A DNA stretch of 57,917 bases, from NCBI GenBank assembly GCA_000320545.1, contig ADNK01000127.1, positions 1-57,917 on the forward strand, in the 5' to 3' direction. The translations under genes were made by a program, and so were the position numbers. Below are positions 31,494-53,607 of this stretch, one piece after another (position 1 is the first letter of the stretch; each line of letters begins with the position of its first letter). The notes beneath the pieces are model-generated. The model made no database searches. It saw nothing but the letters and a program-made list of their open reading frames with translations, and was not told the DNA's origin. The stretch is from Bigelowiella natans CCMP2755 (Eukaryota; Protista; Cercozoa).

Positions 31494-32289
31494 ATCGTTT
31501 GGTCTCGACAGCTGACCACGCTAGAACCCATTGCATGCTACATGCACATGATGCACAGGACAAGCACGTTCTGTCTGAAGCAGTAACTGTCATGATGTCG
31601 CTACACATGCAGCCATCATGACAATCACAAAATGCGTCATGTGCATGTTCGATCATTGCAGTTGCGATCGTTCATCGTGTACTATCCATCTTTCGCTGCA
31701 CTAGCCACATTCAAAGACACCCATGCTGCACGCCTGGATTGCACTGTGCACCATCGATTGTTAATTGCTCAAAGTTGCGCGATGGCAGCGAAGGAAAATG
31801 ACAGTCTAGTAGCAATCTGGAAATGCGTTGTTGCCAGGCGGTGCGTCGAAAATCAATGCTGGAATGGACTCACAGTTCCACACAAAAAAATGCTGTCTTT
31901 ACTTTCCTTCCTTTGTTGTCATCACCATGTGTGTGATGTGTAAGTAATAATAATAATAATTATTATAACCGCCAATGGCGGTATCTGCGATGTGGGCAGA
32001 GCCCACCTGCTCGCAAAGCGATGCGACAGCATTATGCGACTGTATCATTATGCTGTATCATATTACCTTATTATACTCATGTTTCCCAGGGGGTGTTTTC
32101 CGGGGGCGGGGGTTATATATATAAAGTATGTAAGTATTTTAATATATATATATATATATATTAAAAAGTTTGGTTTTTAAAATGCCCCATAAGCCCTCAT
32201 TAGTTATAAAATGAATGAGGTTAGAAAAAAACACTAATTAAAGTGGGGGTCTGAAAAAAAATGAAGAAGCATACGATGTCATTATATGC

Positions 32290-32435
32290 GATGTGCTGTG
32301 CTGTGCGAAGCGATATGCCGTGCTATGTATGTATGTATGTTGCGAAGCGATATGCCGTGCTATGTGCCGTGCCGTGCGAAGCGATTTGCGGTGCTATGTG
32401 CCGTGCTATGCGACTGCTGACTAATATGCGACTGG
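32290..32435 (+). repeat. GC-rich short repeat array (AAGCGATATGCCGTGCTA family), copy 1
   Basis: Units at 32308, 32345 and 32379 (degenerate). 32303-32362 matches 33146-33205 at 59 of 60 nt. Confidence 0.85.
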
Positions 32436-32509
32436 TTTGATAGGCATTGTGTTGTGAGATGCTCATACGAAAAACTTGTTTAAAGAAATGTGTTATATGT
32501 AAGTTAGTT

Positions 32510-33127
32510 ATGAACAAATCTAACGAATTGGTGAAAAAATTATTAATTCTTTCTAAATCTAATGACATTGAGAATGCTATTGAAGAATGGAAATCTCTGA
32601 AAAGTTGTGCGATAGGTAAGCATAAAAAATGTATGATTTCTTATCAACGATATTGTAGAAGTTTCATAAATTTAGAAACTTGTAATGTCATATACCTCAA
32701 AAACAAATATAGTGAATTAAGTGAATATAAAAATGTTGATGTGGAAGCATCTGCCAACTTTTCAACGAACGAAAAACTCTTTTCATATGGTCTTTACAAT
32801 TACCTAAATGAAAAAAAACGAGTTTTACAACAATTAAACAAAACAAAATATTCGCACAGTTTAAGTCTCAAATTAAGAGCTAAAAAATCAATCAGTTTCC
32901 ACGATTTTTTTGAAATTTACAAAAATAAATTAGGCTTTGAAGGATTAATCAAGTTGTTTTTGAAAATTAAAAAAATGAGAAAATTCAAAAACATTTCTAA
33001 AAGACACAAAGAATTATTTGATTTCTGTTATGATTTGTTAAAAAGAAAATACAAAAACAAATATTCCATTTATCTATCATACAATTATCCAGAAAAAATA
33101 ACACAACTAAAAAAGAATGTCGTTTGA
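32510..33127 (+). CDS. Hypothetical viral protein (~205 aa, Lys-rich)
   Basis: ORF with ATG at 32510, preceded by a TGTTTAAAGA motif; flanked by the 60-bp direct repeats. Confidence 0.6.
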   Translation: MNKSNELVKKLLILSKSNDIENAIEEWKSLKSCAIGKHKKCMISYQRYCRSFINLETCNVIYLKNKYSELSEYKNVDVEASANFSTNEKLFSYGLYNYLNEKKRVLQQLNKTKYSHSLSLKLRAKKSISFHDFFEIYKNKLGFEGLIKLFLKIKKMRKFKNISKRHKELFDFCYDLLKRKYKNKYSIYLSYNYPEKITQLKKNVV

Positions 33128-33137
33128 AAAACAGACA

Positions 33138-33290
33138 CATATGCCGTGCGAAGCGATATGCCGTGCTATGTATGTATGTATGTTACGAAGCGATATGCCG
33201 TGCTAATACATATGCGACTAAGCGATATGCCGTGTTAATACACTGCTATTACGAAGCGATATGCCGTGCTAATACACATGCGACTGCTAC
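33138..33290 (+). repeat. GC-rich short repeat array, copy 2 (four 18-nt units, 14-19 nt linkers)
   Basis: AAGCGATATGCCGTG(C/T)TA at 33151, 33188, 33220 and 33254. Confidence 0.85.
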
Positions 33291-33394
33291 AACATACATA
33301 CTTAACAACATATGCTATTAGCAAAAGGATTCCTCTTTTACAAAACATCCAACTATGATTTCTATTTAAAGAATTGTCTCACTATAAGATTAAT

Positions 33395-33592
33395 ATGAGT
33401 AATATTAATCAAGTAAATAAAAGTAGCACAGCAGATAAAATCTATGATGTTGACTATAAACTTAGTGAAATCGTCCTCGTAATAGATGAACTAAAAGCCG
33501 AACTGAATCCTGAATTCTATCGCAAACTAAGAGATAAACTGATGGAAGTCCACATTTGTCTAATGAGCGAAGTTGTAGATGGCTATAAATAA
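33395..33592 (+). CDS. Small hypothetical viral protein (65 aa)
   Basis: ATG 22 nt after TATTTAAAGA (33363-33372); helical-looking sequence. Confidence 0.55.
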   Translation: MSNINQVNKSSTADKIYDVDYKLSEIVLVIDELKAELNPEFYRKLRDKLMEVHICLMSEVVDGYK

Positions 33593-33636
33593 CCATATTT
33601 TCTCCAGACTGGACCCGATGTGTGTGCGGAAGCAGT

Positions 33637-36223
33637 CTACATAGCGATGCGAAGATACTCCCCAGATTTGTAAGGAACATCTTTATCGTTAGCTCCACCA
33701 ACAGCAAACAGTTTGCCATCCCCAATAGCCACTTTTAAACCCCACCTTATGCTCCTCATATCAGGCAGTTTCTTCCACCCCGCTTTCATATTATTCAAAT
33801 CCAGATACTCCCCATTTTTAAGAGTATTACCATCATACCCACCAACAGCAAACAGTTTGCCATCCCCAACGGCCACACCCAAATTACTCCTCTTAGTATT
33901 CATATCAGGCAGTTTCTTCCACCCCGCTTTCATATTCTTCAAATCCAGATACTCTCCAGATTTGTGAGTATTACTACCATCATACCCACCAACAGCAAAC
34001 AGTTTGTCATCCCCAACGGCCACACCCAAAGCATTCCTCTTAGTATTCATATCAGGGAGTTTCTTCCACCCCGCACCCACATTCTTTAAATCCAGATACT
34101 CTCCAGATTTATCACCCCGCCCACCAACAGCAAACAGTTTGCCATCCCCAACGACCACACCCAAACCATATCTCTTAGTATTCATATCAGGGATTTTCGT
34201 CCACCCCGCATTCACATTCTTCAAATCCAGATACTCCCCAGATTTGAGATAATTACTACCATCACCCCCACCAACAGCAAACAGTTTGCCATTCCCAACG
34301 GCCACACCCAAACCATATCTCTTAGTATTCATATCAGGGATTTTCGTCCACCCCGCATTCACATTCTTCAAATCCAGATACTCCCCAGATTTGAGATAAT
34401 TACTACCATCACCCCCACCAACAGCAAACAGTTTGCCATTCCCAACGGCCACACCCAAATACCGCCTCTTAGTATCCATATCAGGGATTTTCGTCCACCC
34501 TTCTTTGAGATAGTCCTCAATCGCCTTCTTCGTTTCCTGCTGTTTCTCCTTGGGCGAACTCAGTCGCGAGATTCGCTCCAGCTTTTCTTCCAGCAACCGG
34601 TTTGCCTCCAACAATTTCCTCTTATCCGCTTCTGCCTTCTGCTTCTCCTCCAACAATTTCCTCTTATCCGCTTCTGCTTTCGCTTCTGCTCTCGCTTCAG
34701 CCTCCCTGACGGCCTCTTCTTTGTTCTTCTCGGCCATCTCCAACTTCTCTTTAAGCTCCTCTGCTTCGTCGTCCAATCCAAGTTGCTTCAAAAACTGGAG
34801 AGAACTCATTTTAGGAGCAATCTTATTAAGCCCTTCGGCCAGTTGACCTGCCTTGGGTCGCTTGGTTCTGTCTGTGTTCAGGCACAATTTTATGGTTTCC
34901 TTGAGAATCGGGTCTGTCTCATCCATCTTATCATACTTCAGCCTCCCGTTCTCTATAGCATCCCTCAAGACATTCTTACTCACCCCTTCAAACGGCATCC
35001 TCATCTCTACGAGGTGATACATCACCAGTCCCAGTCCCCAAATATCCGACTTGTAACCGTATTCACCACTGAACTGTTCGGGAGGCGACCACTCTGGTGT
35101 TCCCCCAGTAGACATTCTCGTCTGCGAGAAGGTGGAGCTCGTGTGGGTAGAGGCCAGACCGAAATCCGCCCATTTCGCCACCCCTCGCTCATCCACTAGC
35201 ACATTCTGGCTTTTTATATCGTGGTGAATGACTCGTTTTTCGTGTAGAAAATGAAGTCCGTTCGCCAATTGCTTAGACCAAATGAGGCGATGCTCGTTCC
35301 CAATTGTATATAAATCATCGTCACCAATCACATCACTCAAGCTTCCGAGAGAGCAGTAGCCCATCACAATAAAGACATTCGGTTCCATCGCCCCTCCAAA
35401 CACCCGAACTACATTCTCGTGCCGAAGGGAAACCGATGTAGTAAGCTCTTTCTTGAAAAGCTCCATTTCCTTCAGGGCAGTTTTGGAGCTATTAAACTCA
35501 ACCTTGGACTCCTTGAAAGCGACTTCCATCCCCTGATACTTGGCCAGATACACGATTCCCATTCCACCTTTTCCTAATTCCTTTGTAATCTTGACATTCT
35601 CTCTGCGAATCACCCACTTGGCCTCTGAAATCCGTTCCCTCTCCAGCAGTCGTTTCAGCTCTACGACATCTTTCTTACTAGCCTCCACCTAAAAAATAAA
35701 TATTATTGTATTGATAGGGACAGGGCTAAAATTAAAATAATCTCACCTCCTTCCTCCGCTGATTGCTCTTGGCCATCTGTTCCAGTCTATCAATCACCTC
35801 GTCGCGGAATTTGCGATGCTCCTCCTCGCAACGATTCAGTTCCACGAGAAGGTCGGTCTGGAGTAGCTCATTGATGCGGAACATCAGTTTCATCAGGCGA
35901 TTAGATTCCGATTTGTTCTCAGACCGTTTCCAAAAGTATTTCTTAAACCAGCCCTGACCTTGGAACGATACGACAAAGTCTCGCACTTCATCAAAACAGT
36001 CCTTCATTTCTTTGAGAACTCCCTGATTCAGCTTCCGATTGTGTAGATTGACCACGGAAGATTTCAAGAGGCTGAAGCACTTCTTCAATTCCTTCACCAT
36101 TCGGTTGTTCTCTTTAGCCTCGTCCAAGACGGAGCATATGTAATTGTAGGCCTCCAAGATTTCTCCCACATTGACCACCATAGTGAGTGAATTGAGATAT
36201 ACGATTTCGTAACTATTCGCCAT
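33637..36223 (-). CDS. MLKL-like 4HB / TKL protein kinase / coiled coil / 6x Kelch protein; join(36223..35747, 35688..33637), ~842 aa
   Basis: A phase-0 GTGAGA...TTTTTTAG intron (35746-35689) fuses ...RRKE to VEASKK.... Kinase motifs GKGGMG, VAFK, HHDIKSQN, DFG, GTPEWSPPE and SDIWGLG. Kelch units W..IPDMNTKR..LGVAVG.GKLFAVGG. The N-terminal helical domain resembles the MLKL N-terminal domain pattern. Confidence 0.82.
33650..34500 (-). repeat. Six ~132-144 bp Kelch-coding tandem units, two essentially identical
   Basis: 34154-34458 shows an exact 144-bp periodicity. Other units differ mainly at loop codons. Confidence 0.9.
35689..35746 (-). other. Predicted 58-nt spliceosomal GT-AG intron inside the virophage
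   Basis: Donor GAG|GTGAGA, AT-rich body with an in-frame stop, acceptor TTTATTTTTTAG|GTG. Splicing joins the two ORFs in frame. Confidence 0.8.
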
Positions 36224-36344
36224 TTCTAAGAGTTTCTTGTGCGGTTTCCCTAAATATCCCTAAAAACCGCCTTCATTTTAATATTCATTCAGTGAAGTGC
36301 GAACTTCAGTTTTCGTTTCCTAATATTTTGCGATTTCAACACCT

Positions 36345-36752
36345 TCAACCCACCCCTACTAAGGTTGCTGTGGGGATACAGACATTCTTCACATAACACC
36401 CTCTGTGTTTGAGATAAGTGGTTTTTATTTTGAATGTATCAAATACTTCTTTATCGTATTGGATATATTTGACTCCATCTGTGAACTTGAAGAAGAAATA
36501 AATGGTTTTGCTCGTATCTACATTCTGTATCTTCTCAATATTGATGTAGGTGGTATCGTATTTATCGCTCCTTATTTTTCTTCCTTTTACTTCTACCAGT
36601 ATCTTTTTGAGTGTATCTTCAAAGTCAAACTTTGAATACCTGCTCTTTGCTATCAATTTTACTTTTAAGAGGTTTTCTATCAGCGGTTTTATCTCTACTT
36701 CGGTCTTATGACCTGCTATATACTCCTCGTTGCTACAGATGTTTTTACTTTT
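36345..36752 (-). CDS. PD-(D/E)XK-type nuclease; frame open to 36752 but lacks an ATG
   Basis: GHKTE...KFDF...ILVEVKGR motif. The upstream sequence ATATATAT-AAA-AGT looks like ATG missing its G. Confidence 0.6.
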   Translation of the reverse strand, partial: KSKNICSNEEYIAGHKTEVEIKPLIENLLKVKLIAKSRYSKFDFEDTLKKILVEVKGRKIRSDKYDTTYINIEKIQNVDTSKTIYFFFKFTDGVKYIQYDKEVFDTFKIKTTYLKHRGCYVKNVCIPTATLVGVG

Positions 36753-36802
36753 ATATATATTAAAAATAATTTATATAATATTTTATTCTAAACGAATATA
36801 AT

Positions 36803-37948
36803 ATGACAAAAGATAAAATACCTTTGTTAGGCAACCTACTACTGCGGAAAGGGTTTTACAGCAAGGAGATAGAGGGCATACTATCCCTGGTCGCATTCAA
36901 TAAGAAGAATGTAGAGGTGTTAGGTAGTTTTCAATTGCGGAGTCAGTTCTATTTCAGTGATATTGACCTCTTTGAAAGCAATGTTAGAATACCAATCAAC
37001 AGAATAGCAGATGGGTTCAAAAAGAAAATAAAGAAGATGCTGAACGACGATAAATACTACATCGGTGATATAAAATGCGGAGTAGCGGAGCATTTGAGGG
37101 TAATAAATGATAATATATACATCCACAACAATAAGGTATATAATTACAACCGAAAGGAGATATTAGAGAGATTACACAGACTGAGAAAGCACCTACCTGA
37201 CTACAAGAAACTAAAAAGACTGATTATCACCAATCCTAATGAGGAGCAGATAAATAAAATAAAACAAATATTTAGGTTTCATATCGTCAGGTGGACCCCA
37301 AGGGAGATATTACAAGGTTATAAGACTTTGATAGATGATAGTAAATACAAATTAGTAGAGGGAATGAAATCTCCTGCTCTATTCAAGTTGGATTTTTACA
37401 AGTATATGAATAATAATAATTTTTTAGAGTTTAGTATCATTTATGATTTACGGAATAGCAAAGGGCAGAAACTAAACAATATTCCATACGATACGAAGCA
37501 AACACTACTTAATGACATTAACAAATATACAACAGAGGGTCAATATTTTAAGGTTTTGAAAAGGAGGTTTTCTTTATTACGATACGAGTATGTTTTTGAG
37601 AAGAAGAAGAGTAATAAGTCCAAGTTAATCGTTCTCTCAAAGATACTAAATAGCAACTTGGGAAATTTATATCAAGTCAAAGCACTCATAGACAATCTAC
37701 TCTTCTTAATAGAGAACTTTAATGATTTAAACAAGGATAGAATAAACAAATCTATTGACGACATCATAGATAAATTATCCTTTGTAAGTTTAAGCAAGTT
37801 TGTGAGAGAGGAAGATGACATCATAGATGATTTAAAAATGATGCTAAAGGGCAAGTCTATCGGTGATATGAGTGGAAACCTGGAGGATATTTATAATACC
37901 ATAGGAGATATTATAAATAAAGAAAGTTATAAGTATATCAAAATATAA
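36803..37948 (+). CDS. Pol-beta superfamily nucleotidyltransferase (Sputnik V21-like)
   Basis: VLGSFQLRSQFYFSDIDL fits hGS-x-DhD, with a candidate third Asp in FKLDF. TCTA motif 12 nt upstream of the ATG. Confidence 0.7.
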   Translation: MTKDKIPLLGNLLLRKGFYSKEIEGILSLVAFNKKNVEVLGSFQLRSQFYFSDIDLFESNVRIPINRIADGFKKKIKKMLNDDKYYIGDIKCGVAEHLRVINDNIYIHNNKVYNYNRKEILERLHRLRKHLPDYKKLKRLIITNPNEEQINKIKQIFRFHIVRWTPREILQGYKTLIDDSKYKLVEGMKSPALFKLDFYKYMNNNNFLEFSIIYDLRNSKGQKLNNIPYDTKQTLLNDINKYTTEGQYFKVLKRRFSLLRYEYVFEKKKSNKSKLIVLSKILNSNLGNLYQVKALIDNLLFLIENFNDLNKDRINKSIDDIIDKLSFVSLSKFVREEDDIIDDLKMMLKGKSIGDMSGNLEDIYNTIGDIINKESYKYIKI

Positions 37949-37990
37949 ATTCAACCCTTTTGAGAGTCTTGAAGGTGTTGAAATTGAAAT
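37949..37990. repeat. 42-bp hybrid palindromic site left of the fibre gene (A-core-B')
   Basis: ATTCAACCCTTT-TGAGAGTCTTG-AAGGTGTTGAAATTGAAAT. Confidence 0.85.
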
Positions 37991-38001
37991 TCACAACAAA
38001 T

Positions 38002-41000
38002 TTAAAACATTCCACTATTATTGAAAAGTGGACTATCAGTTAATTTGTTTATTAATTGATAACCTGGAATTGTTAGGTCAATACCATTGTTATTACCATT
38101 AGAAGGATTATTATTACCACCAAATTGTGTAAGGGTTCTACAAGCAAATTCTCCCTGAACTAGACAATCTCTATATTTATTCCAATTTGCTATGTATGGT
38201 CTTGTTCCATTTTCCACAGGACCTTCCAATCGTATGGATTTGTAATCAGGGTTTGAAATTCCATCATCCCCAAAGTTTGAACCTCTAAAGATGAAATCAT
38301 TGATACGAATTTGAGGGAAATTATATTCACCTGATAATACTATATCCAATTGAGTTCTTAAAATATCTATTTGGTCTTTCAAATAATTATTTTGGGTTTC
38401 TAATTGCTGTAGTTTGTTGGATAATAAAACACCATTTTTCATCTTGATTTCTCCATTAAATGTAGTCTCACCACCTATTTTTACATTGTTCATATGTGTA
38501 TCACCTGTAAAGTGAATACCATCACTATTTGATAAAATACGATTCGTATAATCTGTGCCTGGTTGGTGAACAAAATCAATGTAGCAGGTGCCAGAAACCA
38601 TTTCTATTGAAGAAGCATTATTAATGTCTTTTCCTAAATAAATACCATCACTTTGTGGTTGAGTGGTGCTTCTTAAACCATTCACAAAAATTGAACTTGA
38701 AAACTGATGTTCATTAGGATTAGATGATAAAGTTATTGGATTTAATTTCGTTTCTAGCACAGACACTTGTGTCATAAGTTCGGTTGTTTTTGTTCCCATA
38801 TCTACAATCTTCTTTTCGTATCCAAATAATTCTAACTCGTTGATGGACCAGTAATTAAATTGCTCTATCTTTTTAACAATCCAGCGATAGTGTTTGTAGA
38901 AATTGGTCGTTTGAATGGTTTTATCAATATAAACCCTACCATTCACTGATGTTCCTTGAACTGAAGTTGTTTGAATTGTATTTATGGTTGATAATGGAAC
39001 TTTGCTTTTAAAATCGGTAATGCTAGTAGTTATTGGGAAATGAACAAATGTATCGCCTACTATCCTTTCGGTGGTAAAGCTATAATCCTGGATGTGTTCC
39101 CAAGTTGAATTGTTGTTAGAACCAATCAATACAATTTCCTGTGGTTGACTACTAAAGTCATTCAATTGATTAAATAATATCCACCTGGATATTTGAACTG
39201 GTAGGGTAAAATTCGCTTGGAAATATTCACCGCTTTCTGTAATGCTCGTTCCATTTTTCGTGTAAACTGTTGAGGTGCTACCTATGTAATCATCACCTGA
39301 ATTTTGATAAACATCTGTTCCAAAAGCACTATTAGGGTCAGGTTGCCTCACAATAAGTCGTTCAAATACATCAACATTTTTATTATATAGTATATCAGGA
39401 GTGGAAGGAACATTATTTTGGGTTAAATCCACATAATTACTCAATTCTGCGGTGTATGGTAAATTCTCTAGCAATCCAACCACATTTTTCAGGGTCAGTT
39501 TTTCAAATGTTGATTCATTTCCTGTGATTACCAAACCATTCGTAGTATCATTTGTTATTTTATTTGACAGATTATAATCGCTTAATGTGGTGAGTTTCTT
39601 TTCAAATTTAGATTTGGTGCTAAAGGTTAATCCATTTATGCTATCGCTTGTAATCCCACTTATGCTGTTGTTCGTTCCAGTGGAAGGATTAAATATGCTT
39701 CCATTCAGGTAGAGGTTGGTGAATTTACCATCTACTCCTTCAATCTGTTTCGCTTTTATCTTGGTATCACTTGCTGATGAGAGAATGATAGTTGATGGTA
39801 AAGAGTTTTTATTTATCTGTATGGTTTCATCGTTTAAGGTGTAGGATATGGAAGGACTTTGAGTTGTTGTAAATTCAAGACCTTTAATATTTTCTATAGT
39901 GTTGTGATTCAAACTAAGGTTCCTATTCATATGGACACTTTTCGTATCAACAAATAATGGGGCAGAATTGTTTGTATCGCTAATGAGGTTGTCAGCATTC
40001 GCTGTCGTTGTGTTATTGGTGGTGGTTGTCAGGTTATTTAAATCAAACGATTTATATGTTCCGTCAGTCTGCTTTTGCGATATAGTTTCAACATTTATGC
40101 TCTTGGTTGTGAGATTATTGGTGTTAATTATATTATCACTCTGTAATTTTTTAGAGATGACATCCCCATTTGTTTTTAATTGGATGTTCGTAGTCCCTGT
40201 AGTTGAACCTGTTGGTAATTCATTCACAAGAAAGTCCTTGTTAGTGATATTAATGTTCGTAGGATTGATAGTGAAATGGTCTATTTTCGTGCCTATATTA
40301 TTAATATTGGTTGTATTGCTACCAATGTTGGTTGTATTATTGCTCATAGTAGTGGTATTGTTGGTAATGTTAGCTGTGTTTGTGGCTACATCAGTTTTAA
40401 TGGTGTTTATCCCACTTTCATTCGTAGCTATTCGGTTAGTATTGGAAGTGATATTGCTTGTATTGGTGTTAGTTCTTGTGCTGTTGGACTGAATAGAAAC
40501 ATTATGTCCGTTTATTGAACTCTCGTTGTTAATAATCCTATTGGTATTCTGTGTTATTCTATCCCTGTTGTTAGCAATATCATTATCATTGGAAATTCTT
40601 TGAACCAAGTTCTCGTTGATTTTGGTCGTGTTATTAGCAATGTTGGTGGTATTCTCACTTATCTTTGTCAGTTGGGTCGCAAGATTACCACCATCCAGGT
40701 TAATACTTGTGAAATTCGCAGTATCTCCTGTAATAGTCTTACCAGCATTCAACTGAATGTTCTTACTAAAGTCTATTCTGTCATTCGTCGTAGTTGTTAT
40801 ACCATCTATCCCAGCTGAAATGTTGTTGTTGTTCGTTGTAAAGTTTTGATTGTTTAAGGTAAGTGAAGCAGATTTGATATTATCTTCAACTATTATGTTT
40901 TTCACCTTAATCGTATCTTGAACCTGTATTCCTTTCGCTTCTAATATTCCGTCGTTGTTTACATCCATTATCAATCTACCATCACTTAATCGTGTAAAAT

Positions 41001-41016
41001 AATTTGCCGCACTCAT
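38002..41016 (-). CDS. Putative virion fibre / receptor-binding protein (1004 aa)
   Basis: N-terminal IxxNTxx heptad coiled coil and Thr/Asn-rich beta repeats. Discoidin/F5-8-like segment (IVLIGSNNNSTWEHI..YKHYRWIV..INELELFG). Phage-fibre-like YIDF..DYTNRI motif and a C-terminal coiled coil. Confidence 0.7.
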   Translation of the reverse strand: MSAANYFTRLSDGRLIMDVNNDGILEAKGIQVQDTIKVKNIIVEDNIKSASLTLNNQNFTTNNNNISAGIDGITTTTNDRIDFSKNIQLNAGKTITGDTANFTSINLDGGNLATQLTKISENTTNIANNTTKINENLVQRISNDNDIANNRDRITQNTNRIINNESSINGHNVSIQSNSTRTNTNTSNITSNTNRIATNESGINTIKTDVATNTANITNNTTTMSNNTTNIGSNTTNINNIGTKIDHFTINPTNINITNKDFLVNELPTGSTTGTTNIQLKTNGDVISKKLQSDNIINTNNLTTKSINVETISQKQTDGTYKSFDLNNLTTTTNNTTTANADNLISDTNNSAPLFVDTKSVHMNRNLSLNHNTIENIKGLEFTTTQSPSISYTLNDETIQINKNSLPSTIILSSASDTKIKAKQIEGVDGKFTNLYLNGSIFNPSTGTNNSISGITSDSINGLTFSTKSKFEKKLTTLSDYNLSNKITNDTTNGLVITGNESTFEKLTLKNVVGLLENLPYTAELSNYVDLTQNNVPSTPDILYNKNVDVFERLIVRQPDPNSAFGTDVYQNSGDDYIGSTSTVYTKNGTSITESGEYFQANFTLPVQISRWILFNQLNDFSSQPQEIVLIGSNNNSTWEHIQDYSFTTERIVGDTFVHFPITTSITDFKSKVPLSTINTIQTTSVQGTSVNGRVYIDKTIQTTNFYKHYRWIVKKIEQFNYWSINELELFGYEKKIVDMGTKTTELMTQVSVLETKLNPITLSSNPNEHQFSSSIFVNGLRSTTQPQSDGIYLGKDINNASSIEMVSGTCYIDFVHQPGTDYTNRILSNSDGIHFTGDTHMNNVKIGGETTFNGEIKMKNGVLLSNKLQQLETQNNYLKDQIDILRTQLDIVLSGEYNFPQIRINDFIFRGSNFGDDGISNPDYKSIRLEGPVENGTRPYIANWNKYRDCLVQGEFACRTLTQFGGNNNPSNGNNNGIDLTIPGYQLINKLTDSPLFNNSGMF

Positions 41017-41070
41017 ATATATATTTAATATAGTTTAGATAAAAAAATATTAAATATATATTTATTCCAG

Positions 41071-41112
41071 ATTTCAATTTCAACACCTTTGAGGGTGTTG
41101 AAAGGGTTGAAT
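41071..41112. repeat. 42-bp hybrid palindromic site right of the fibre gene (B-core-A')
   Basis: ATTTCAATTTCAACACCTT-TGAGGGTGTTG-AAAGGGTTGAAT. Both arms are exact reverse complements of the arms at 37949-37990. Confidence 0.85.
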
Positions 41113-41152
41113 ATCAATATTGGATTAAATATATAAATACACATAATTAAAT

Positions 41153-41758
41153 TTAACTTTGAATGAAATTTCCTGATACTTCAAATTGAACTCCTGCCTT
41201 GATTCTCACAACTGGATTAGAAGGGTCGGTTTCATCAATTTCTAAATACTCTTCAATCTTGCTTAATCTTGGTAAAGTGTTGCTTAAATCCGCATTGTGA
41301 GCATCAATTCTTGCCTGGATTTTTGCTTCAATGTCAGTATTAACAGTTGCTTGTGCTGCTTCAACGGCATCTAATCTGGCACTATCGTTTGTATGTAATC
41401 CATCTAATCTGGAAATCTCACCATCCACAAAGGTATTTCTTGTGTTGTGAGCATTTTCTAAGGATAATCTCGCACTGGTTTCAGTAGCGAGTTTGCCTTC
41501 AATGTCAGTTTTATTGTCATCAATTTCTTGCTGTAAATTTGTGATTGCATTTGTAGTAGCAGTATTAGCATTATCTATCTGTGTTTGTAATCCTGCTCTT
41601 GCTGTAGCATTAGCAGTCTCGCTGTCATTATAAGTTGTTATGTGAGCATTTAAAGAATTTAACACAGCGGTCTTCTCTGTATCAATCCTTGTGATGGTCA
41701 AACCTGTAAGTGCTCCATCTATTAATACGGTATTTCTAAAATGTGCAGTGGCGGACAT
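41153..41758 (-). CDS. Coiled-coil fibre-like structural protein (201 aa)
   Basis: Heptad repeats (ETSARLSLE, EISRLDGL) and an upstream TCTA motif. Confidence 0.65.
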   Translation of the reverse strand: MSATAHFRNTVLIDGALTGLTITRIDTEKTAVLNSLNAHITTYNDSETANATARAGLQTQIDNANTATTNAITNLQQEIDDNKTDIEGKLATETSARLSLENAHNTRNTFVDGEISRLDGLHTNDSARLDAVEAAQATVNTDIEAKIQARIDAHNADLSNTLPRLSKIEEYLEIDETDPSNPVVRIKAGVQFEVSGNFIQS

Positions 41759-41797
41759 TATATAACATAGTTTAGAAAATAATTATTTTTAAAGATT

Positions 41798-42127
41798 TTA
41801 TCCCTGCTCTAAGTTGCCTGTGACCTTCAAATCATAAGCGGTCGTTATGCTCTTGTTTGTATGGTCTATCTGTAGTGCTTGTAGTATTTGATTTATTGTA
41901 TCCAGCACATCCGCTTTGAACGATATAATATCGTTCTTTATCGCATTTATTTCGCTCTTTATATCACCTACTTCATTTTGTAGACTTGTGATTTCAGGTG
42001 CTTGTAATTGGTCATTTACTTTAATTTTATCACATTCAATATCATCTAAATCAAAGTCAACATTGCCGACATTAAACTCTACTGCCTTAGTAGTCCTATC
42101 AACATTTAAATAGTTCGCAAAACTCAT
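41798..42127 (-). CDS. Short coiled-coil structural-type protein (109 aa)
   Basis: Heptads ITSLQNEVGDIKSEINAIKNDI. N- and C-terminal motifs are shared with the neighbouring fibre genes. Confidence 0.6.
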   Translation of the reverse strand: MSFANYLNVDRTTKAVEFNVGNVDFDLDDIECDKIKVNDQLQAPEITSLQNEVGDIKSEINAIKNDIISFKADVLDTINQILQALQIDHTNKSITTAYDLKVTGNLEQG

Positions 42128-42215
42128 ATTTATTATAATATACTATATAATTTATTTGAAAAGAAAAAACATTATATTTATTGAGTAATAATTATAATAT
42201 TTTTTTTAATAACAA

Positions 42216-43406
42216 TTAATTCATTTGTATAAGCATACTTTTCTCCACTTTAAAGTGTTTAGGAAGTTCCTCCTCTTTCCATTTCCCAAGTTCATCACTA
42301 ATTTCAAAATGTATTGCTTTGCTTCTTGCTATCACTAAACTATCGGTATGACTATACACAACATCATCTTTGTATTCATTTATCAAACCAACCATATAGG
42401 TTCTCACATAAGAGGTAAGAAATGGTGCTATTCTACAGGCATAGTATTTAAAATACTTCTTTTCTTCTTCAAATTTAGTCAAGGATAATATCGTATATCC
42501 ATCAGGTCCTATTTTGTATGTAGGGGTTTCATTACTTTCTCGGTCATCAATTTCTATCACTTGCTTTGTGTTGACCTTTCTTCTTAATTTGGTTTGGAAT
42601 ATACCCCACAGTTTATTCATTGTTAGTTTTACTAAATCTTGAGATTTTGAATGAGGTAATAATCTGTGAAAGAATTTACCAAAGAGCTTTATGGACTTTA
42701 ATTTCTCTTTGTAATACAGATAATTGGTGTCCAATAGGTTCAATTTCAATCCTAATTCTTTTGCTTGTTTTAGTTCAAGATGAGTATAAATATTGTGTTT
42801 GTTGTATTTAAAAAATATATCATCATCTTTGCTTATTTCAACACAATACAGACCATAATTGAATTTGTAATACTTATCAACTTGTTCCTGTGTTATGGTT
42901 CTTGTCATAGGTGTCCCTAAAGGAATAGTGAAATAATTACTACATAGCACGGATGTGTATTTTTTATTCAAATCCAATTTGATATAGTCTTTGTTTTGAT
43001 ATTCTCCATCCACACTATATCGTATTCCACCTCTACTTGCTTTGTATACCCATTCTTCTTCCATTTCTGTAGTCCTTCCAAACTCTACCTCCTGTGGTCT
43101 AAACTGATTCCAAATGTATAAACTCATCTCTGTATCATCGTAGTTGCTTCGTTTGTAGTCATAACCTGTGATTGCTTTGAACTGATAAAAATCGTTCATT
43201 TTCTTTCCATATTCTTCAATCACATTGCTGTTCTTGGATGGTTTAAGAACATATAAATTATACCCTTCCAGTGTTTTGCTTCGTAATATGTTCTCACCAT
43301 CTACAGTTAAATGGTATTCTTTCTCATCTCTGTTGTAATGGTAGACACCAAAGGTTTTTCGGTTGTAATTGGTAGCACATCTGTATTTCTTTTTTTTCGG
43401 CAACAT
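42216..43406 (-). CDS. Minimal family B DNA polymerase-like protein (396 aa, no recognisable exonuclease domain)
   Basis: SRGG; motif A DLNKKYTS; motif B KLTMNKLWG; motif C YSHTDS; ELGKWK. Confidence 0.78.
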   Translation of the reverse strand: MLPKKKKYRCATNYNRKTFGVYHYNRDEKEYHLTVDGENILRSKTLEGYNLYVLKPSKNSNVIEEYGKKMNDFYQFKAITGYDYKRSNYDDTEMSLYIWNQFRPQEVEFGRTTEMEEEWVYKASRGGIRYSVDGEYQNKDYIKLDLNKKYTSVLCSNYFTIPLGTPMTRTITQEQVDKYYKFNYGLYCVEISKDDDIFFKYNKHNIYTHLELKQAKELGLKLNLLDTNYLYYKEKLKSIKLFGKFFHRLLPHSKSQDLVKLTMNKLWGIFQTKLRRKVNTKQVIEIDDRESNETPTYKIGPDGYTILSLTKFEEEKKYFKYYACRIAPFLTSYVRTYMVGLINEYKDDVVYSHTDSLVIARSKAIHFEISDELGKWKEEELPKHFKVEKSMLIQMN

Positions 43407-43457
43407 ATATATTAATATATATATGAAAGAGTATTTCTTTAAATACTTTTTCGTATA

Positions 43458-43844
43458 TTATTTGAAATAATTAATAAGAACGGATTGTATAAAAAAATCG
43501 TCCCTATGAAGGTCTATACTACCGAACCCTTCCTGTCTGTTGCTTGGGTAGTGAACACCATCACCGAGTGTTGTTATTCTTCCTGATATTGGTATGTTGT
43601 ATTGTAAGATATAAACGACTTGGATTTCTGTATTATCGTTTATTTTCCCTCTGTTTTTCAGTTTGTTTATTTTCCTCGCGATGATTTCATTTGCTGTAGT
43701 AGCATCAGGGAGATACTTTTTACCTTCTTTTTTGAAGTCATACCTTCTTGTGTATAGGAATTTATTCCTTTTCTTTATATTTTGTTTTCTTTCCTTTGAT
43801 TTATTATCATATGCTTGAAACTTTAATCTAACTCTATTACTCAT
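43458..43844 (-). CDS. Hypothetical protein in the replication cluster (128 aa)
   Basis: ORF with its own TATTTAAAGA motif 25 nt upstream. Confidence 0.6.
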   Translation of the reverse strand: MSNRVRLKFQAYDNKSKERKQNIKKRNKFLYTRRYDFKKEGKKYLPDATTANEIIARKINKLKNRGKINDNTEIQVVYILQYNIPISGRITTLGDGVHYPSNRQEGFGSIDLHRDDFFIQSVLINYFK

Positions 43845-43883
43845 ATATTATATATATATAAGAGATAAATCTTTAAATATATA

Positions 43884-45407
43884 CTATACATTTATATCTA
43901 CCTCTTCTTCATCATCTTCTTTCTTTATTAATTTCTTAAAGTAGAACCTTCCTCTCACTTTACCAAAAAGAAATTTGTTTGCTAACATTTGCTTTTTGAA
44001 GTTGCTTTTAGATATGTAAACCGGAGACCAACTTTTAAAGTGTTTATAAATATCGTTGTATAAAATTCTATCTCTAACATCATCAGTAACATCGTAATTC
44101 TCTTCAATGAAATTTAAGGTGTGATTGTTATCGTTTAAATAATCGTTTGTGAATTTCAATACCTTTTCAGGAGGATTTAATTTCTCCATATCTACATGTT
44201 CTAACAATAGTTTGATGTATTCTCTACGATATTCTTTGTTGTTTCTGAACTTATCTTTGAGAGTGTAATCCCTTTTCTTTTCATATTTGTTGTTAGGGTC
44301 AGGTTTTTCTTTGAATTGAAAAGGGAATTGGATGTTTAAGAACCTTCGTTTAATGCTATCATCTACACTATCTAATTTAGGAGCATTATTACATAAGCAG
44401 AAGATGCTAAAATCAGCAAGGAATTCCACAGGAGTATCATACATCTCTCTACAACTAACTGTATCATTATCCGTAATCTTTTTGAGAAAACTTACATTGA
44501 AAGATAGTTCTTTATCGCCTTCATTTTCTTCAGGTTCATTGACGACAACCAATCGCTTATCCATACATTTATATAAATCACTATTAGGGGCATTCGCTTT
44601 GTATTTAGTTGTTAGGAACTGAGAAGAAACTATATTGCAATATTTAGAAGTTGCTACTTGATGAAGAGCAGTTAAAACACCTTTACCGTTCCCTCCACTG
44701 CCTAAAAACATAATTAGCAATCCAAACTTATTGTAAAAGAGACTGTTTGCTAATAATTTTAGCAGAAACAGAGCATCTTGTTGTGTTTCTTGTATGCCGA
44801 AAATGAAATCCAATATGTCCTTTCTCACCTCTTGTTTAATCGGTCTTCTGGGTTTAAGTTTGAATTTGATATAATTAGAAATAAAGTCTTTCTTTTCTAT
44901 ATCTCTATATTTCTTTGTTTCAAGGTCATACACACAATCTTTAAATGCTAATAGGTTCTTATTTTTATCTATTTTGTTCAATATGTCCTCATCATTGTAG
45001 TATTTCATTAGTTTAGCGATGATGTTCTTACTAAAGGCATTGCTTCCTACCTTTCTAAAATTCTTTAAATATTCTCCTCTATATCTCTTATCCTTTCCAA
45101 TCTTAGCAAACTCTGTTTTTAGGACATGCTGTAAGCATGTGGATATGTGGTTGTTTAGAAAGACCGGTGCCTCCTTTTTGTAGGATTTCACAATATTGTT
45201 CTTATCGTAGAAGAACCAAATCTTATGTTCCTGATTGTATATGTAAGCATCTTTGTTTAAATCATAAAATAGTTTTGCCCAACATTCGTCACTGTAAGTA
45301 GGCAACACATCGGTAAAAAATCTGTAATCAACAGTGATGACAGGTTTCCCATCAGGCACACTGATGCTGTTCGCATAGTCCAGAATAGCAGGATTAATAT
45401 TATCCAT
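43884..45407 (-). CDS. D5-like superfamily 3 helicase (D5_N + SF3 + C-terminal winged-helix-like region), no obvious primase domain
   Basis: NLLAFKDCVYDL (D5_N), Walker A GSGGNGKG, Walker B VVVNEPE, motif C CLCNN, Arg finger SIKRRF. Confidence 0.9.
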   Translation of the reverse strand: MDNINPAILDYANSISVPDGKPVITVDYRFFTDVLPTYSDECWAKLFYDLNKDAYIYNQEHKIWFFYDKNNIVKSYKKEAPVFLNNHISTCLQHVLKTEFAKIGKDKRYRGEYLKNFRKVGSNAFSKNIIAKLMKYYNDEDILNKIDKNKNLLAFKDCVYDLETKKYRDIEKKDFISNYIKFKLKPRRPIKQEVRKDILDFIFGIQETQQDALFLLKLLANSLFYNKFGLLIMFLGSGGNGKGVLTALHQVATSKYCNIVSSQFLTTKYKANAPNSDLYKCMDKRLVVVNEPEENEGDKELSFNVSFLKKITDNDTVSCREMYDTPVEFLADFSIFCLCNNAPKLDSVDDSIKRRFLNIQFPFQFKEKPDPNNKYEKKRDYTLKDKFRNNKEYRREYIKLLLEHVDMEKLNPPEKVLKFTNDYLNDNNHTLNFIEENYDVTDDVRDRILYNDIYKHFKSWSPVYISKSNFKKQMLANKFLFGKVRGRFYFKKLIKKEDDEEEVDINV

Positions 45408-45470
45408 ATATATATTATATTATATATTTTTATCTTTAAATAATAACGATTATTTCTAACCTTAATAATC

Positions 45471-45707
45471 TTATAACAAGTTACTAAAGGCAGTCAGCAA
45501 CTCTTTGTCAAGCAGTTTTAATTGTAAGTATATTTTTTTGTGCTTTCTAAACTTCTCAAGTTTCTCTTGAGTATCAATAATGCCTGAATACTTATGCTTA
45601 TAGTTTGCTAATACTCGCCTTTTGTTTAATTTGTCCTTATTGCGACGATAATATAGTTTTTGGTGGCGGAACATGTCTGTTTTCGCTATAGTATTTTTAT
45701 TGCTCAT
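45471..45707 (-). CDS. Small basic hypothetical protein (78 aa)
   Basis: YYRRNKDKLN basic helix; TATTTAAAGA motif upstream. Confidence 0.6.
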   Translation of the reverse strand: MSNKNTIAKTDMFRHQKLYYRRNKDKLNKRRVLANYKHKYSGIIDTQEKLEKFRKHKKIYLQLKLLDKELLTAFSNLL

Positions 45708-45866
45708 TAATATGATATATATATTAATATATCTTTAAATAGCATTCATATATAAGCGACCGCGAAATGCAAGTGCAGAGAGGCAGAAACAAGAGACTTT
45801 ATTAGCATATAACATTTGCAAAAAGCAGTCCTTGTCCATTTGTCAGTCGTCCTAATAAAAAGTAAA

Positions 45867-46727
45867 TCAAGTCGCATCTCCTGATACATATTCTACATCA
45901 TCTTCACTTTCATCACCTACTGCATCTTCTGGTATATATTCAAAATCATCTTCACTCTCATCACCTACCGCGAAGCATATTTTTTGATGCTTTTCTTCCT
46001 TTTCGCCTTCTTCAAACCTTGAAGCAAGGTTCTGCTTCACCAAAGGAGACCCAGTGAATGGGTTAGAAGCAGAAACATCCATCGTCTCAGTCTTGGAATT
46101 ACTACCAGGAAGTTTAAGTTTCGCATTCTCAAACTTGATAGGCGACTTGACTTTGTCAACATACAGAAGTTTCCGTTCCTCGTCAACTCGCACGATTTTC
46201 TTCGCGGATTTCACATATCCCTTGTCAGGATTCAGCAAATTCTTGTATATGATTTTATCTCCCTCTTTAAATGCAACTCCTTCAGCACTTGTTTTGGGTA
46301 GATGTTTCACAGCAGAACTCTTAAGTCTCGCATTCTCAAATTTAATCGGAGACTTAATATTCTCCACGAAAAGCAGTTTCCTCTCCTCATCCACACGAAC
46401 GACCTTTTTCGCGGTTTTTACCATACCCTTTTGAGGACTCACCAAGTTTTGGTAAATAACCTTATCGCCAACCTTGAACTCAACATTCCCATCGCTGTTC
46501 AAACGATTTGAAGGCAAACTTGGCACACACAGCAAATCTTCCATAGGGATACACCTATCAATGCTTTTGAACCTTGTAGTCGTGTAATCGCTCTTCTCAT
46601 ACGGAGTTTTCCAAGTGACATAGTCCTCCTTCTTGTCTACCACACCGTGTGCTTCCAGTACCCTTGTTTCACCATTTTTTTTGGTGAAAATAACAACAGC
46701 AGGGAATTGCTTGGGGAGGAGGGACAT
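45867..46727 (-). CDS. Cargo protein with a duplicated SH3/KOW-like domain and acidic tail
   Basis: Two ~57-aa repeats, FKVGDKVIY..VRVDEERKLLFV..KSPIKFENA and FKEGDKIIY..; VGDESEDD occurs twice. Likely ATG at 46727. Confidence 0.7.
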   Translation of the reverse strand: MSLLPKQFPAVVIFTKKNGETRVLEAHGVVDKKEDYVTWKTPYEKSDYTTTRFKSIDRCIPMEDLLCVPSLPSNRLNSDGNVEFKVGDKVIYQNLVSPQKGMVKTAKKVVRVDEERKLLFVENIKSPIKFENARLKSSAVKHLPKTSAEGVAFKEGDKIIYKNLLNPDKGYVKSAKKIVRVDEERKLLYVDKVKSPIKFENAKLKLPGSNSKTETMDVSASNPFTGSPLVKQNLASRFEEGEKEEKHQKICFAVGDESEDDFEYIPEDAVGDESEDDVEYVSGDAT

Positions 46728-46953
46728 AGTTGATTTATTAAGGCAACTGGCGACATAGGTCACCTAATTTGCTCCCCTACGACAAGGAATTGTGATAAAA
46801 AAAATAAATAAATGCCCTCGTAAAAGATGTGAGGAAAATGGCAGGATAGTAAGATAATACGACAAGCAGGGCGAAAACAAATCGCCTTCAATTAATACCA
46901 AGGGGTGTTATTAATAGGATTTTGGAAATACCCAATTGCAATGAGTCCAAATC

Positions 46954-47060
46954 TATTTTTAACCCATTGGAATGGGTTATTTTTAGACCCACTCCAATGG
47001 GAGTGGGTTATTTTTAGACCACTCCAATGGGAGTGGGTTATTTTTAGACCACTCCCATTG
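46954..47060. repeat. Tandem ~30-bp hairpin repeats (TATTTTTAGACCCACTCCAATGGGAGTGGGT)
   Basis: Two full and two partial units, each an internal near-palindrome. Confidence 0.85.
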
Positions 47061-47128
47061 AGATTGCCTTTTCGCTTCGGTAAATTCACATAATTTAAAT
47101 TCTAAAAATAGAAATATTTAAGTATACG

Positions 47129-47240
47129 GTTTCATACTCTAAAATGAAACCCCAAAAAGTTTCATACTCTAAAATGAAACCCTAAAAAGTTTCATACTCT
47201 AAAATGAAACCTCAAAAAGTTACATACTCTAAAATGAAAC
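47129..47240. repeat. Four tandem 30-bp units containing the GTTTCAT-N8-ATGAAAC inverted repeat
   Basis: GTTTCATACTCTAAAATGAAAC at 47129, 47159, 47189 and 47219 (last has one mismatch). Confidence 0.9.
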
Positions 47241-47426
47241 TACCATACGGTTATATTTTCGTGTTGCACCTTTCATTTTGTGGTGTTGCACGATTTTTAG
47301 TGAAGATAAACCCCCTGCAATTTTTAAATACTTTTATTATTTCCACAAGGGGCAAAAATGTTCTCAAAATGCCCTACAATTTTAATATGTTCATCAAAAG
47401 GCGACATACGGACCTTCATCCTTGCA

Positions 47427-48967: not shown

Positions 48968-49010
48968 TAAAACACTTGTTGCTTTCGCATATATCAGCAT
49001 CCGCATATGT

Positions 49011-49190
49011 CAGCACATAGCATAGCACAGCACATAGCACGGCACAGCATATAGCACGGCACAGCATATAGCACATAGCACAGCACATAGCACGGCACAG
49101 CATATAGCACGGCACAGCATATAGCACATAGCACAGCACATAGCACGGCACAGCATATAGCACATAGCACAGCACATAGCAGTCGCAGTA
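49011..49190 (-). repeat. CATAGCACGGCACAG-type array, reverse complement of the left-end TGCCGTGCTA family
   Basis: Repeated TAGCACGGCA/TAGCACAGCA units between convergent genes. Ends in GCAGTCGCA, the reverse complement of TGCGACTGC seen in the left arrays. Confidence 0.85.
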
Positions 49191-49206
49191 TTCGCTTTGC
49201 TTCACA

Positions 49207-49521
49207 TTATTTATTATCCTTCATCTTTGGCGACGGCAAGAATGTGCCCAGTATTAATATAACTATATTTAAAAAAGCATTCCGCTCGGACGAATTATTA
49301 ACTGTGATAACTTGTAACATACTAAATACAAGCACACTAAATATGACTCCGCTCTTTAAGAAGAACTCTAATGCTCTTTTATCGCTAGTTACACAGCAAG
49401 ATTGATATGTGTTCTCTAATTTCGCATCCTCCACTTCCATTTTGTGTAGTATCTCCTGCTCCAATCGCTTTTTGAACTCTTGTGAGTGCTTCACATCCAA
49501 GACCAGTTCTTTATTATCCAT
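49207..49521 (-). CDS. Small two-TM membrane protein (104 aa)
   Basis: SCC motif, two hydrophobic helices, C-terminal LPSP; TCTA motif upstream. Confidence 0.7.
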   Translation of the reverse strand: MDNKELVLDVKHSQEFKKRLEQEILHKMEVEDAKLENTYQSCCVTSDKRALEFFLKSGVIFSVLVFSMLQVITVNNSSERNAFLNIVILILGTFLPSPKMKDNK

Positions 49522-49584
49522 ATATACAATAGAGTTAGATAATTATATTATTTAAAGAAATAATGACTAACAAAAGTATGAGAA

Positions 49585-50409: not shown

Positions 50410-50411
50410 TT

Positions 50412-50449
50412 ATTTTAATAACATATTTGATTAAATATTTTATTAAAAT
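50412..50449. terminator. AT-rich hairpin between the convergent HNH and ATPase genes
   Basis: ATTTTAATAA/TTATTAAAAT outer stem plus inner ATATTT/AAATAT pairing. Confidence 0.55.
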
Positions 50450-51325: not shown

Positions 51326-51351
51326 TTAGATATTATTTTTTATAGTAAATA

Positions 51352-53600: not shown

Positions 53601-53607
53601 ATATATA

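Follow-up and report, generated by a model that had tools for sequence, protein, structure and literature searches.

A kinase-Kelch gene beside an endogenous virophage in Bigelowiella natans encodes near-identical propeller blades with hypervariable loops at predicted ligand-contact positions

What might a propeller of nearly identical Kelch blades, hypervariable in the loops of a single face, be doing in the genome of an alga, right beside the genes of a virophage? The question is raised by a minus-strand gene for a protein of 842 amino acids (hereafter the kinase-Kelch gene) on contig ADNK01000127.1 of the chlorarachniophyte Bigelowiella natans CCMP2755, a stretch of 57,917 nucleotides that was analysed whole and is called the window below. 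The C-terminal part of its product is a six-bladed Kelch propeller, near-identical from blade to blade in DNA and hypervariable in the loops of one face, and we consider it on balance probable that this is the ligand-recognition module of a sensor family that diversifies by exchanging blades and by selection for new loop residues. Building receptors from near-identical repeats in which some few positions on the surface are hypervariable is a recognised route to fast diversification of recognition, as a survey describes for the WD40, ANK and TPR repeats of fungal NOD-like receptors (NLRs) (PMC4986451).

A Kelch array of near-identical blades

The array closes a 683-codon open reading frame (ORF), in which the Pfam family Kelch_1 is recognised over 5 stretches with an expectation value (E) of 3.4e-42 (142 bits against a curated cut-off of 20.1). 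At 33695-34500 Tandem Repeats Finder (TRF) reports a period of 147 bp with 5.6 copies and 87% matches; TRF, the translation, DNA alignment and a model built with AlphaFold2 (AF2) delimit the following elements, the variable loops being named after the strands that they connect and located relative to an Arg (R+1, R+2) and to a Gly-Gly pair (GG).

33637..35688, minus strand: ORF of 683 codons plus stop, corresponding to exon 2 (kinase, coiled coil, Kelch), with the Kelch array at its end
33640-34500, minus strand: six Kelch blades
34354-34500, minus strand: Kelch blade b1
34207-34353, minus strand: Kelch blade b2
34072-34206, minus strand: Kelch blade b3
33925-34071, minus strand: Kelch blade b4
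33781-33924, minus strand: Kelch blade b5
33640-33780, minus strand: Kelch blade b6
34459-34464 (b1), 34312-34317 (b2), 34165-34170 (b3), 34030-34035 (b4), 33883-33888 (b5) and 33739-33744 (b6), minus strand: hypervariable D-A loop dipeptide (R+1, R+2)
34393-34413 (b1), 34246-34266 (b2), 34111-34119 (b3), 33964-33984 (b4), 33820-33837 (b5) and 33670-33693 (b6), minus strand: hypervariable B-C loop after GG

Blades b1-b5 have pairwise DNA identities of 0.83-0.95, and b6 is 0.70-0.71 identical to them. At the amino-acid level the mean identity within b1-b5 is 0.80 (range 0.73-0.94; b1-b2 0.94, b2-b3 0.87, b4-b5 0.88), with a mean of 0.73 over all six blades and a framework-only mean of 0.87. The frame is unbroken throughout and the array ends in LRIAM, the conserved C-terminus of the family. 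Two short elements differ from blade to blade: the D-A dipeptide reads RY, YG, YG, NA, SN and WG from b1 to b6, and the loop after GG, 3-8 residues long, reads GDGSNYL, GDGSNYL, RGD, YDGSNTH, YDGNTL and ANDKDVPY. An earlier note made from the letters of this DNA had listed exactly these dipeptides and loops and had called the repeats near-identical in DNA, as b1-b5 are; it had also reported one exact duplication of 144 bp, which is indeed exact but measures 158 bp (34155-34312 = 34302-34459, offset 147). This is the sole exact direct repeat of at least 60 bp; it begins just past codons R+1 and R+2 in one blade and ends at codon 18 in the following one.

Within b1-b5, the proportion of nonsynonymous differences (pN) in the codons of the D-A dipeptide and post-GG loop is 0.385, set against a proportion of synonymous differences (pS) of 0.070 in the framework, and variable codon columns make up 7/9 of the loop versus 13/40 of the framework (Fisher p 0.022). 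Taken by themselves, the blades of the window thus give a modest signal of selection.

Predicted propeller and ligand-contact positions

The array is predicted to fold as a closed six-bladed beta-propeller, the AF2 model (predicted local distance difference test score, pLDDT, 96.2; predicted template modelling score, pTM, 0.93) containing 24 strands in six groups. Foldseek matches it to the Kelch domains of KLHL17, KEAP1, KLHL12, KLHL20, KLHL3 and NS1-BP with a template modelling (TM) score of ~0.8 and probability 1.0, and DSSP applied to the model locates the variable residues in the D-A and B-C loops.

These are the loops that form the pocket in which KEAP1 holds NRF2, whose residues are listed in a review (PMC12314335). 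The pocket residues were transferred to the window protein via chain 6wcq_C (P0175, alignment A1), the numbering of which (chain index = residue number + 7) was fixed through the identities of the listed residues. Twenty-two of the 28 could be aligned, and all 22 lie on unit positions 13-14 (R+1, R+2) or 29-36 (GG to GG+6); the other six comprise four in loop gaps and two in the C-terminal D-A loop of KEAP1, the counterpart of which is the N-terminal end of the array in the window protein. In detail, the R+1/R+2 sites are equivalent to KEAP1 S363/N414/I461/S508/S555 and R415/G462/G509/A556, and the B-C loop sites to Y334/R380/S431/F478/Y525/Y572 and R483/Q530/F577. Because every aligned pocket residue falls there, the variable sites correspond to the ligand-holding positions of KEAP1. 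The earlier note had assigned the variable positions to the substrate-binding face of Kelch propellers, and this assignment agrees both with the alignment, in which 22/22 pocket residues fall on variable or neighbouring loop positions, and with the place of the variable sites on the model.

Hypervariability of the contact sites

Beyond the window, 64 blades were cut out of 13 proteins with a profile made from the six blades described above. Entropy among them peaks at R+1 (3.79 bits), GG+6 (3.73), GG+1 (3.33), GG+4 (3.14) and R+2 (3.00), and in the KLFAVGG core the columns K, L, V, G and G are at 0 bits. The residues found most often at R+1 and GG+1 are Tyr, Trp, Arg and Ser, and the combination of R+1, R+2, GG+1 and GG+6 takes 57 distinct forms in the 64 blades. 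With further members included, 89 blades present 50 D-A dipeptides and 71 B-C loops.

The DNA set consists of 17 blades from three genes, namely that of the window and those on two metagenome contigs, L001 and L002, which encode other family members; both contigs are short and they are the sole finds of the metagenome scan, and the array of L002 has a frame break, its truncated blade being left out of the set. A single codon is used by all 17 blades in 14/49 codon columns. The four codons equivalent to KEAP1 contacts (R+1, R+2, GG+1 and GG+6), which were picked beforehand, occupy ranks 1-4 of 49 in pN, and their mean pN was reached by 0/100,000 random sets of four columns. Their pN of 0.571 compares with a pS of 0.131 in 40 framework codons, and the remaining five codons of the B-C loop have a pN of 0.270; the excess of nonsynonymous change that the earlier note had looked to at the variable sites is seen in these counts.

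A diversity-generating retroelement was considered as a source of this variation and is unlikely: no reverse transcriptase came up when 28 ORFs of the window, the majority at least 150 amino acids long, were scanned with Pfam, and by eye the variable codons are not adenine-specific.

Exchange of blades

Between six-blade paralogs, sharing a position makes no difference to the framework identity of two blades (0.786 either way), the value within one protein being 0.844; in DNA, the framework is 0.890 identical within genes and 0.894 between genes. At the contact sites identity amounts to 0.14 within one protein versus 0.12-0.13 between proteins. One blade core is shared outright, window b6 being identical to blade 2 of P0006 and to blades 2 and 5 of P0007. 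Moreover, the Kelch arrays group otherwise than the N-terminal parts: P0001 agrees with the window protein at 89% of positions in the 202 amino acids ahead of the array and at 73% within it, the array nearest to that of the window belongs to P0003 (80%), whose N-terminus is unrelated, and the array nearest to that of P0001 belongs to P0004.

These patterns are consistent with a common pool in which blades are homogenised and shuffled, and it is from them that we infer recombination, no event having been observed. The proposal of the earlier note, a recognition module diversified by recombination, gains support from the position-independent similarity, the shared blade core and the discordant grouping of arrays and N-termini.

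A Kelch family in Bigelowiella natans

In protein searches the window protein is matched best by Bigna1 gene models of Bigelowiella natans, to none of which it is identical. At least 14 Bigna1 models contain the same blades, nine of them within the main range of sizes and five below it, as do a few metagenome proteins. Identity does not exceed 39% in the Kelch matches that come next, which are generic KLHL proteins; this distribution points to a lineage-specific expansion of the blade family. Six blades are the commonest number (9/13 proteins). The N-terminal parts are unrelated among members with the same blades and comprise the following types.

Kinase: window protein, P0001, P0242
SAM domain: P0002
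Transmembrane-looking segment: P0004, P0246
Coiled coil only: P0003, P0010
Unrelated region without a Pfam family: P0005
Second unrelated region without a Pfam family: P0006, P0007, P0008, P0011, P0014 and others

The N-terminal domain common to P0006, P0007 and P0008 gave no usable match in the Atlas. Pfam matches of family members to Hao_C and GAAD are short, lie inside or just before the Kelch region and were read as spurious.

Gene structure and the kinase

Upstream of the propeller, the gene comprises a helical N-terminal domain, a protein kinase and a charged helical linker, in this order, and is interrupted by one intron between exon 1 (159 codons) and exon 2 (683 codons).

35747..36223, minus strand: exon 1, 159 codons from ATG (477 nt), helical N-terminal domain
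35689..35746, minus strand: spliceosomal intron of 58 nt, GT..AG, 24% GC, the removal of which joins both ORFs in frame
34834..35595, minus strand: protein kinase domain, Pfam Pkinase E 3.8e-44
34501..34803, minus strand: charged helical linker, coiled-coil-like, the coiled coil being read off the sequence by eye

Exon 1 lies within an ORF of 163 codons (35732..36223), in a frame different from that of the 683-codon ORF. The intron is spliced out in RNA libraries: contigs of X13 and X15 (sequencing runs filed or guessed as RNA) have a joint skipping 58 nt (35685>35744, cut +3), and X1 and X2 (runs guessed to be DNA) are without this joint and hold the unspliced piece 35617-35760. Since 22/698 positions differ in its kinase part, the X15 contig derives from a close variant and not from this exact copy.

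The kinase contains the motifs GKGGMG, VAFKE, HHDIKSQN, DFG and SPPE; with its catalytic motifs intact it is probably active, and with HHD in place of HRD it is of the non-RD type. Non-RD kinases are linked with innate immune receptors. In the linker, a 42-nt tandem duplication (34605-34691; TRF 2.1 copies, 93% matches) repeats the peptide KAEADKRKLLEE. Pfam finds no BTB or BACK domain in the 683-amino-acid ORF or in exon 1, and no NACHT or NB-ARC domain in the kinase-Kelch gene.

At the 3' end, RNA-type contigs within 33318-33669 (352 nt in X15, 198 nt in X13) cross the Kelch stop codon from the AT-rich region of a 72-amino-acid ORF, reflecting either a long 3' untranslated region or convergent overlapping transcripts. 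In X1, read depth in Kelch bins is 5-40x that in kinase bins, a measure that is not copy number and was not used as evidence. A shorter array allele, suggested by a joint that skips 567 bases in X1 and X2, was rejected as too weak, one side of the joint having 22 letters.

The N-terminal domain

The AF2 model of the exon-1 domain consists of four long helices and has a moderate pLDDT of 76. Relatives are rare (9 among 1.84 billion representatives); the N-terminus of P0009 is 40% identical (E 3e-36), and elsewhere the domain is joined to a kinase plus Sel1 repeats, to a kinase alone or to Sel1 repeats alone (P0009, P0231, P0234), so that by its domain contexts it appears to behave as a portable N-terminal module combined with alternative repeat sensors.

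Several comparisons point in one direction. Language-model neighbours in the Atlas belong to clusters with MLKL_N, MCAfunc and RPW8 (score 0.93, 185 shared features). With VIA, the CC-R domain of NRG1.1 ranked second (Z 9.0, root-mean-square deviation (rmsd) 3.5, 103 residues), residues 2-116 of MLKL seventh (Z 7.9, rmsd 3.0, 94 residues), and the coiled-coil (CC) domains of Rx and MLA13 scored Z 7.2 and 7.0, values that all lie below the ~13 under which scores are common for helical bundles. Foldseek returned several entries of the MLKL executioner domain (one at probability 0.85, E 0.63), all with E of at least 0.6, its E values for the domain as a whole being 0.5 or higher. The general frequency of such Z scores tells against a specific relationship, as does the finding that 7 family members had no Pfam match to MLKL_N or RPW8 at E up to 5. 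A four-helix bundle of the MLKL/RPW8 kind is accordingly a lead suggested by the model, with the balance tipped slightly in its favour.

Comparison with known systems

The closest parallel in design is offered by the repeat domains of fungal NLRs (Podospora HET-E/HET-D/HET-R and the NWD family), for which the fungal survey (PMC4986451; compare PMC1805685, PMC2873952, PMC12222747) likewise describes near-identical repeats with few hypervariable positions on the binding surface, exchange of repeats within and between paralogs, and one repeat type behind different N-terminal domains. The repeats here are however Kelch, a type outside the WD, ANK and TPR repeats to which the 2014 survey of fungal NLRs is confined (PMC4986451); a kinase and a helical linker take the place of NACHT or NB-ARC, and the host is a chlorarachniophyte alga. 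Because the NOD domain is absent, the gene is not an NLR and the comparison, which the earlier note had also drawn, is an analogy of design.

With the Kelch domains of KEAP1 and KLHL proteins the array shares the six-bladed propeller (30-37% identity) and variable sites homologous to the KEAP1 pocket. Unlike them, it is not attached to a BTB/BACK adaptor part, for which reason the protein is not a KLHL adaptor, and its blades are 73-94% identical to one another, whereas those of ordinary KLHL proteins were found to be 39-56% identical, a control that is biased upward because the window-derived profile found 2-4 blades per protein.

MLKL is a pseudokinase. Like animal and plant MLKL, and like the RPW8/CC-R domain of plant helper NLRs, the window protein has an N-terminal helical bundle, here directly upstream of the kinase fold, the structural match being weak; it differs from MLKL in keeping the catalytic Lys, Asp and DFG, and proteins with the exon-1 domain differ from MLKL/RPW8 proteins in the addition of a C-terminal Kelch or Sel1 sensor.

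The top matches in the PDB, ahead of any natural Kelch protein, are designed symmetric Kelch proteins of the SAKe6 series (phmmer 8pjv E 1.7e-74, Foldseek E 8e-28). The natural array resembles one idealised blade repeated six times, except that the designs repeat their loops too, whereas the natural loops differ between blades. A search confined to open-access texts found no description of hypervariable Kelch arrays, of this Bigelowiella family or of a comparable case in Rhizaria. Previous descriptions of the design concern fungal immune receptors built on other types of repeat, and its Kelch version in a chlorarachniophyte alga is likely to be new.

Genomic setting

The first 32 kb of the window have 44-50% GC and contain scattered exons of cellular genes; an AT-rich segment follows, then the kinase-Kelch gene as an island of 44-51% GC, and from ~36.3 kb to the window end densely coding DNA of ~30-36% GC.

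3471-4163: RCC1 repeat, exon-sized Pfam match in host-type DNA
15389-16069: glycine-cleavage H protein, exon-sized Pfam match in host-type DNA
30716-31000: aldo-keto reductase C-terminus, exon-sized Pfam match in host-type DNA
32000..33636: AT-rich left flank (22-41% GC) with two ORFs and 34-nt tandem arrays, presumed left end of the virophage element
32287-32413 and 33149-33277: 34-nt tandem repeat arrays with core CGAAGCGATATGCCGTGC, bracketing the 226-amino-acid ORF at the boundary between host and AT-rich DNA
32447-33127: 226-amino-acid ORF of the left flank, no Pfam match
33374-33592: 72-amino-acid ORF of the left flank
36224..57917: endogenous virophage gene block, delimited by Pfam and composition
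38002-41016: Asn/Thr-rich protein of 1004 amino acids, virophage block
43884-45407: D5-type primase-helicase, D5_N E 4.1e-13
50450-51178: packaging-type ATPase, virophage block
53608-54375: lipase-like protein, virophage block
55172-56461: penton, virophage block
56492-57916: major capsid protein, running off the window, Sputnik_MCP_1st E 1.6e-37

The block from ~36.3 kb is an endogenous virophage, since it encodes a Sputnik-type capsid and penton protein, a D5-type primase-helicase, an ATPase and a lipase-like protein; further virophage capsid-type Pfam matches are MCP_V20_C (E 2.9e-26) and V18-19 (E 2.9e-17). Provirophages of Bigelowiella natans were reportedly treated by Blanc et al. in 2015. 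The integration and transcription of such elements are described in PMC5127031, and the block resembles these provirophages in being integrated, in having a capsid of the Sputnik type and in belonging to a genome whose proteins are matched best by Bigna1 models. Neither the kinase-Kelch protein, nor the neighbouring 381-amino-acid ORF, nor the capsid protein has a close relative among 2.9 million viral contigs (IMG/VR), and tblastn of the capsid protein against a phage collection gave no match.

By composition, with AT-rich DNA on both sides, the kinase-Kelch gene appears to lie inside the element; no terminal inverted repeat is visible, because the window stops within the element. The GC content of the gene (0.468) is that of the host flank (0.464) and not that of the virophage ORFs (0.25-0.36). 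As the 226-amino-acid ORF has no Pfam match, the left flank is assigned to the virophage by its composition; a 64-nt direct repeat, 97% identical, runs across the two arrays (32299-32362 and 33142-33205).

A 595-nt X13 contig follows the window with 7 differences over 36216-36500 and is unlike it for at least 255 nt past 36216, a position that lies 7 nt into the kinase-Kelch gene from its start. Because this contig continues with unrelated sequence, related elements may carry another gene at that site.

A possible mechanism and its alternatives

In the mechanism that we propose, the framework would be homogenised, and blades moved about, by unequal crossing-over or gene conversion acting both inside single members of the family and from one member to another, and diversifying selection would keep the contact residues different, giving each propeller a binding surface of its own. 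Binding of a ligand might then be relayed through the linker and the kinase to the N-terminal helical bundle, which, if it is of the MLKL/RPW8 kind, could be a membrane-targeting effector of death or signalling.

Several observations count against a sensor family diversified by blade exchange and selection. Local pN/pS at the four contact codons is 1.78, contact pS being raised too (0.320), and for the window blades alone the overall ratio is ~1.0; these are plain pairwise counts, which are not independent, and part of the diversity of the contact codons could stem from a mutation hot spot or from old alleles. A four-gamete test of D-A versus B-C loop types gave 0 rectangles among 79 distinct blades, so that recombination between the two loops of one blade is not supported. 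Mean identity between blades (0.80 in b1-b5, 0.73 over the full set of six) falls short of the level of at least 85% over at least 100 amino acids by which the fungal survey defines highly conserved repeats (PMC4986451). Blade counts of 1, 2 or 5 in some members may reflect errors of gene models or assembly and not true variation in length, and Pfam recognises no virophage gene in the AT-rich left flank.

The reading closest to known biology would make the paralogs ordinary cellular scaffolds or substrate adaptors, each specialised on another endogenous partner as in animal KLHL proteins, with loops that record past subfunctionalisation and neither an arms race nor recognition of non-self. Fold and contact positions are those of KLHL proteins and KEAP1, paralogs have signalling-type N-termini (SAM, kinase), and no immune phenotype is known for the family; the missing BTB/BACK part speaks otherwise, as do contact sites that diverge as much within a protein as between proteins, and blade positions that are not kept between paralogs, contrary to what one would expect of stable, specialised adaptors. 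Identity of framework synonymous sites across genes moreover indicates recent and continuing exchange, and we hold such adaptors to be unlikely, though a credible account. That the array is instead a very recent tandem duplication, its loops varying for want of structural constraint and without selection for diversity, would suit the exact 158-bp duplication, the overall ratio near 1 in the window and the tolerance of beta-propeller loops to change. Relaxed constraint cannot, however, lift nonsynonymous diversity over the neutral rate, and contact pN is 4.4x framework pS; the sites predicted from KEAP1 stand out from the other codons of their own loop, and the pattern holds over the 64 blades of 13 proteins, beyond the newest duplicate. 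Neutral drift of this sort therefore seems distinctly improbable to us.

The setting prompts a different doubt, namely whether a captured cellular gene now serves the virophage, by sensing its helper giant virus or manipulating the host, and is not a host defence gene. The GC-rich island is flanked by DNA of 22-38% GC on either side, virophage structural and replication genes begin ~100 bp upstream of the gene, and the X13 contig indicates that related copies of the element may differ at this site; against such cargo, the gene has kept host-like GC and a spliceosomal intron, the left flank is without a recognisable virophage gene, and the viral contigs searched hold no related gene, which together render this origin quite unlikely. 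Mis-assembly of a multi-copy family could in turn have produced the order and number of blades, given that blade DNA is common to many loci, that 139/322 X1 contigs fit two places, that short-read contigs break in the array and that the 567-base joint occurs in X1 and X2. We nevertheless judge it a very slight risk, because the frame is intact through six blades to the LRIAM of the family, six is also the commonest count, and the hypervariability, established with 13 proteins plus two independent contigs from metagenomes, does not depend on how the blades of the window are ordered.

Possible ligands and significance

If the propeller is the recognition module of a diversifying sensor, its ligand could be a viral protein, because the gene forms an island of host-like GC between AT-rich DNA and endogenous virophage genes. 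It is this neighbourhood, together with the analogy to fungal NLR repeats (PMC4986451), that suggests non-self, possibly viral, ligands. In its fullest form the idea would be that of an algal receptor family of the innate-immune type, in which blade-shuffling Kelch sensors are wired via a kinase to an MLKL/RPW8-like death domain and at least one copy, inside an endogenous virophage, detects giant-virus or virophage proteins and triggers cell suicide or virophage activation; so specific a scenario is unlikely as a whole. Were it true, the family would be a Kelch-based, non-NLR counterpart of fungal and plant receptors, tied to virophage-mediated defence.

To our knowledge, the antiviral immunity of the chlorarachniophyte lineage is essentially unknown. 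A sensor role would amount to a convergent invention of the repeat-sensor design with a different fold and signalling core (a kinase and a possible MLKL-like bundle), and the location beside virophage genes would supply a concrete candidate sensor for the proposed defence role of provirophages. The family also provides a natural collection of at least 79 loop sets on one idealised Kelch scaffold, of interest for protein engineering since the PDB entries that match it most closely are symmetric Kelch proteins made by design.

Further reading frames of the virophage block

Two further ORFs of the block have features of their own. The Cys-rich ORF of 274 amino acids at 49585-50409 (plus strand), which has no Pfam match at E 0.01 or better, contains the unit CEHG..C..C..G.SIC about six times in tandem, with an HNH-like stretch at the C-terminus. 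That of 396 amino acids at 42216-43406 (minus strand), likewise without a Pfam match, contains the motif YSHTDS, which we take to resemble motif C of family B DNA polymerases, so that the ORF may presumably be a remnant or a divergent form of a protein-primed polymerase.

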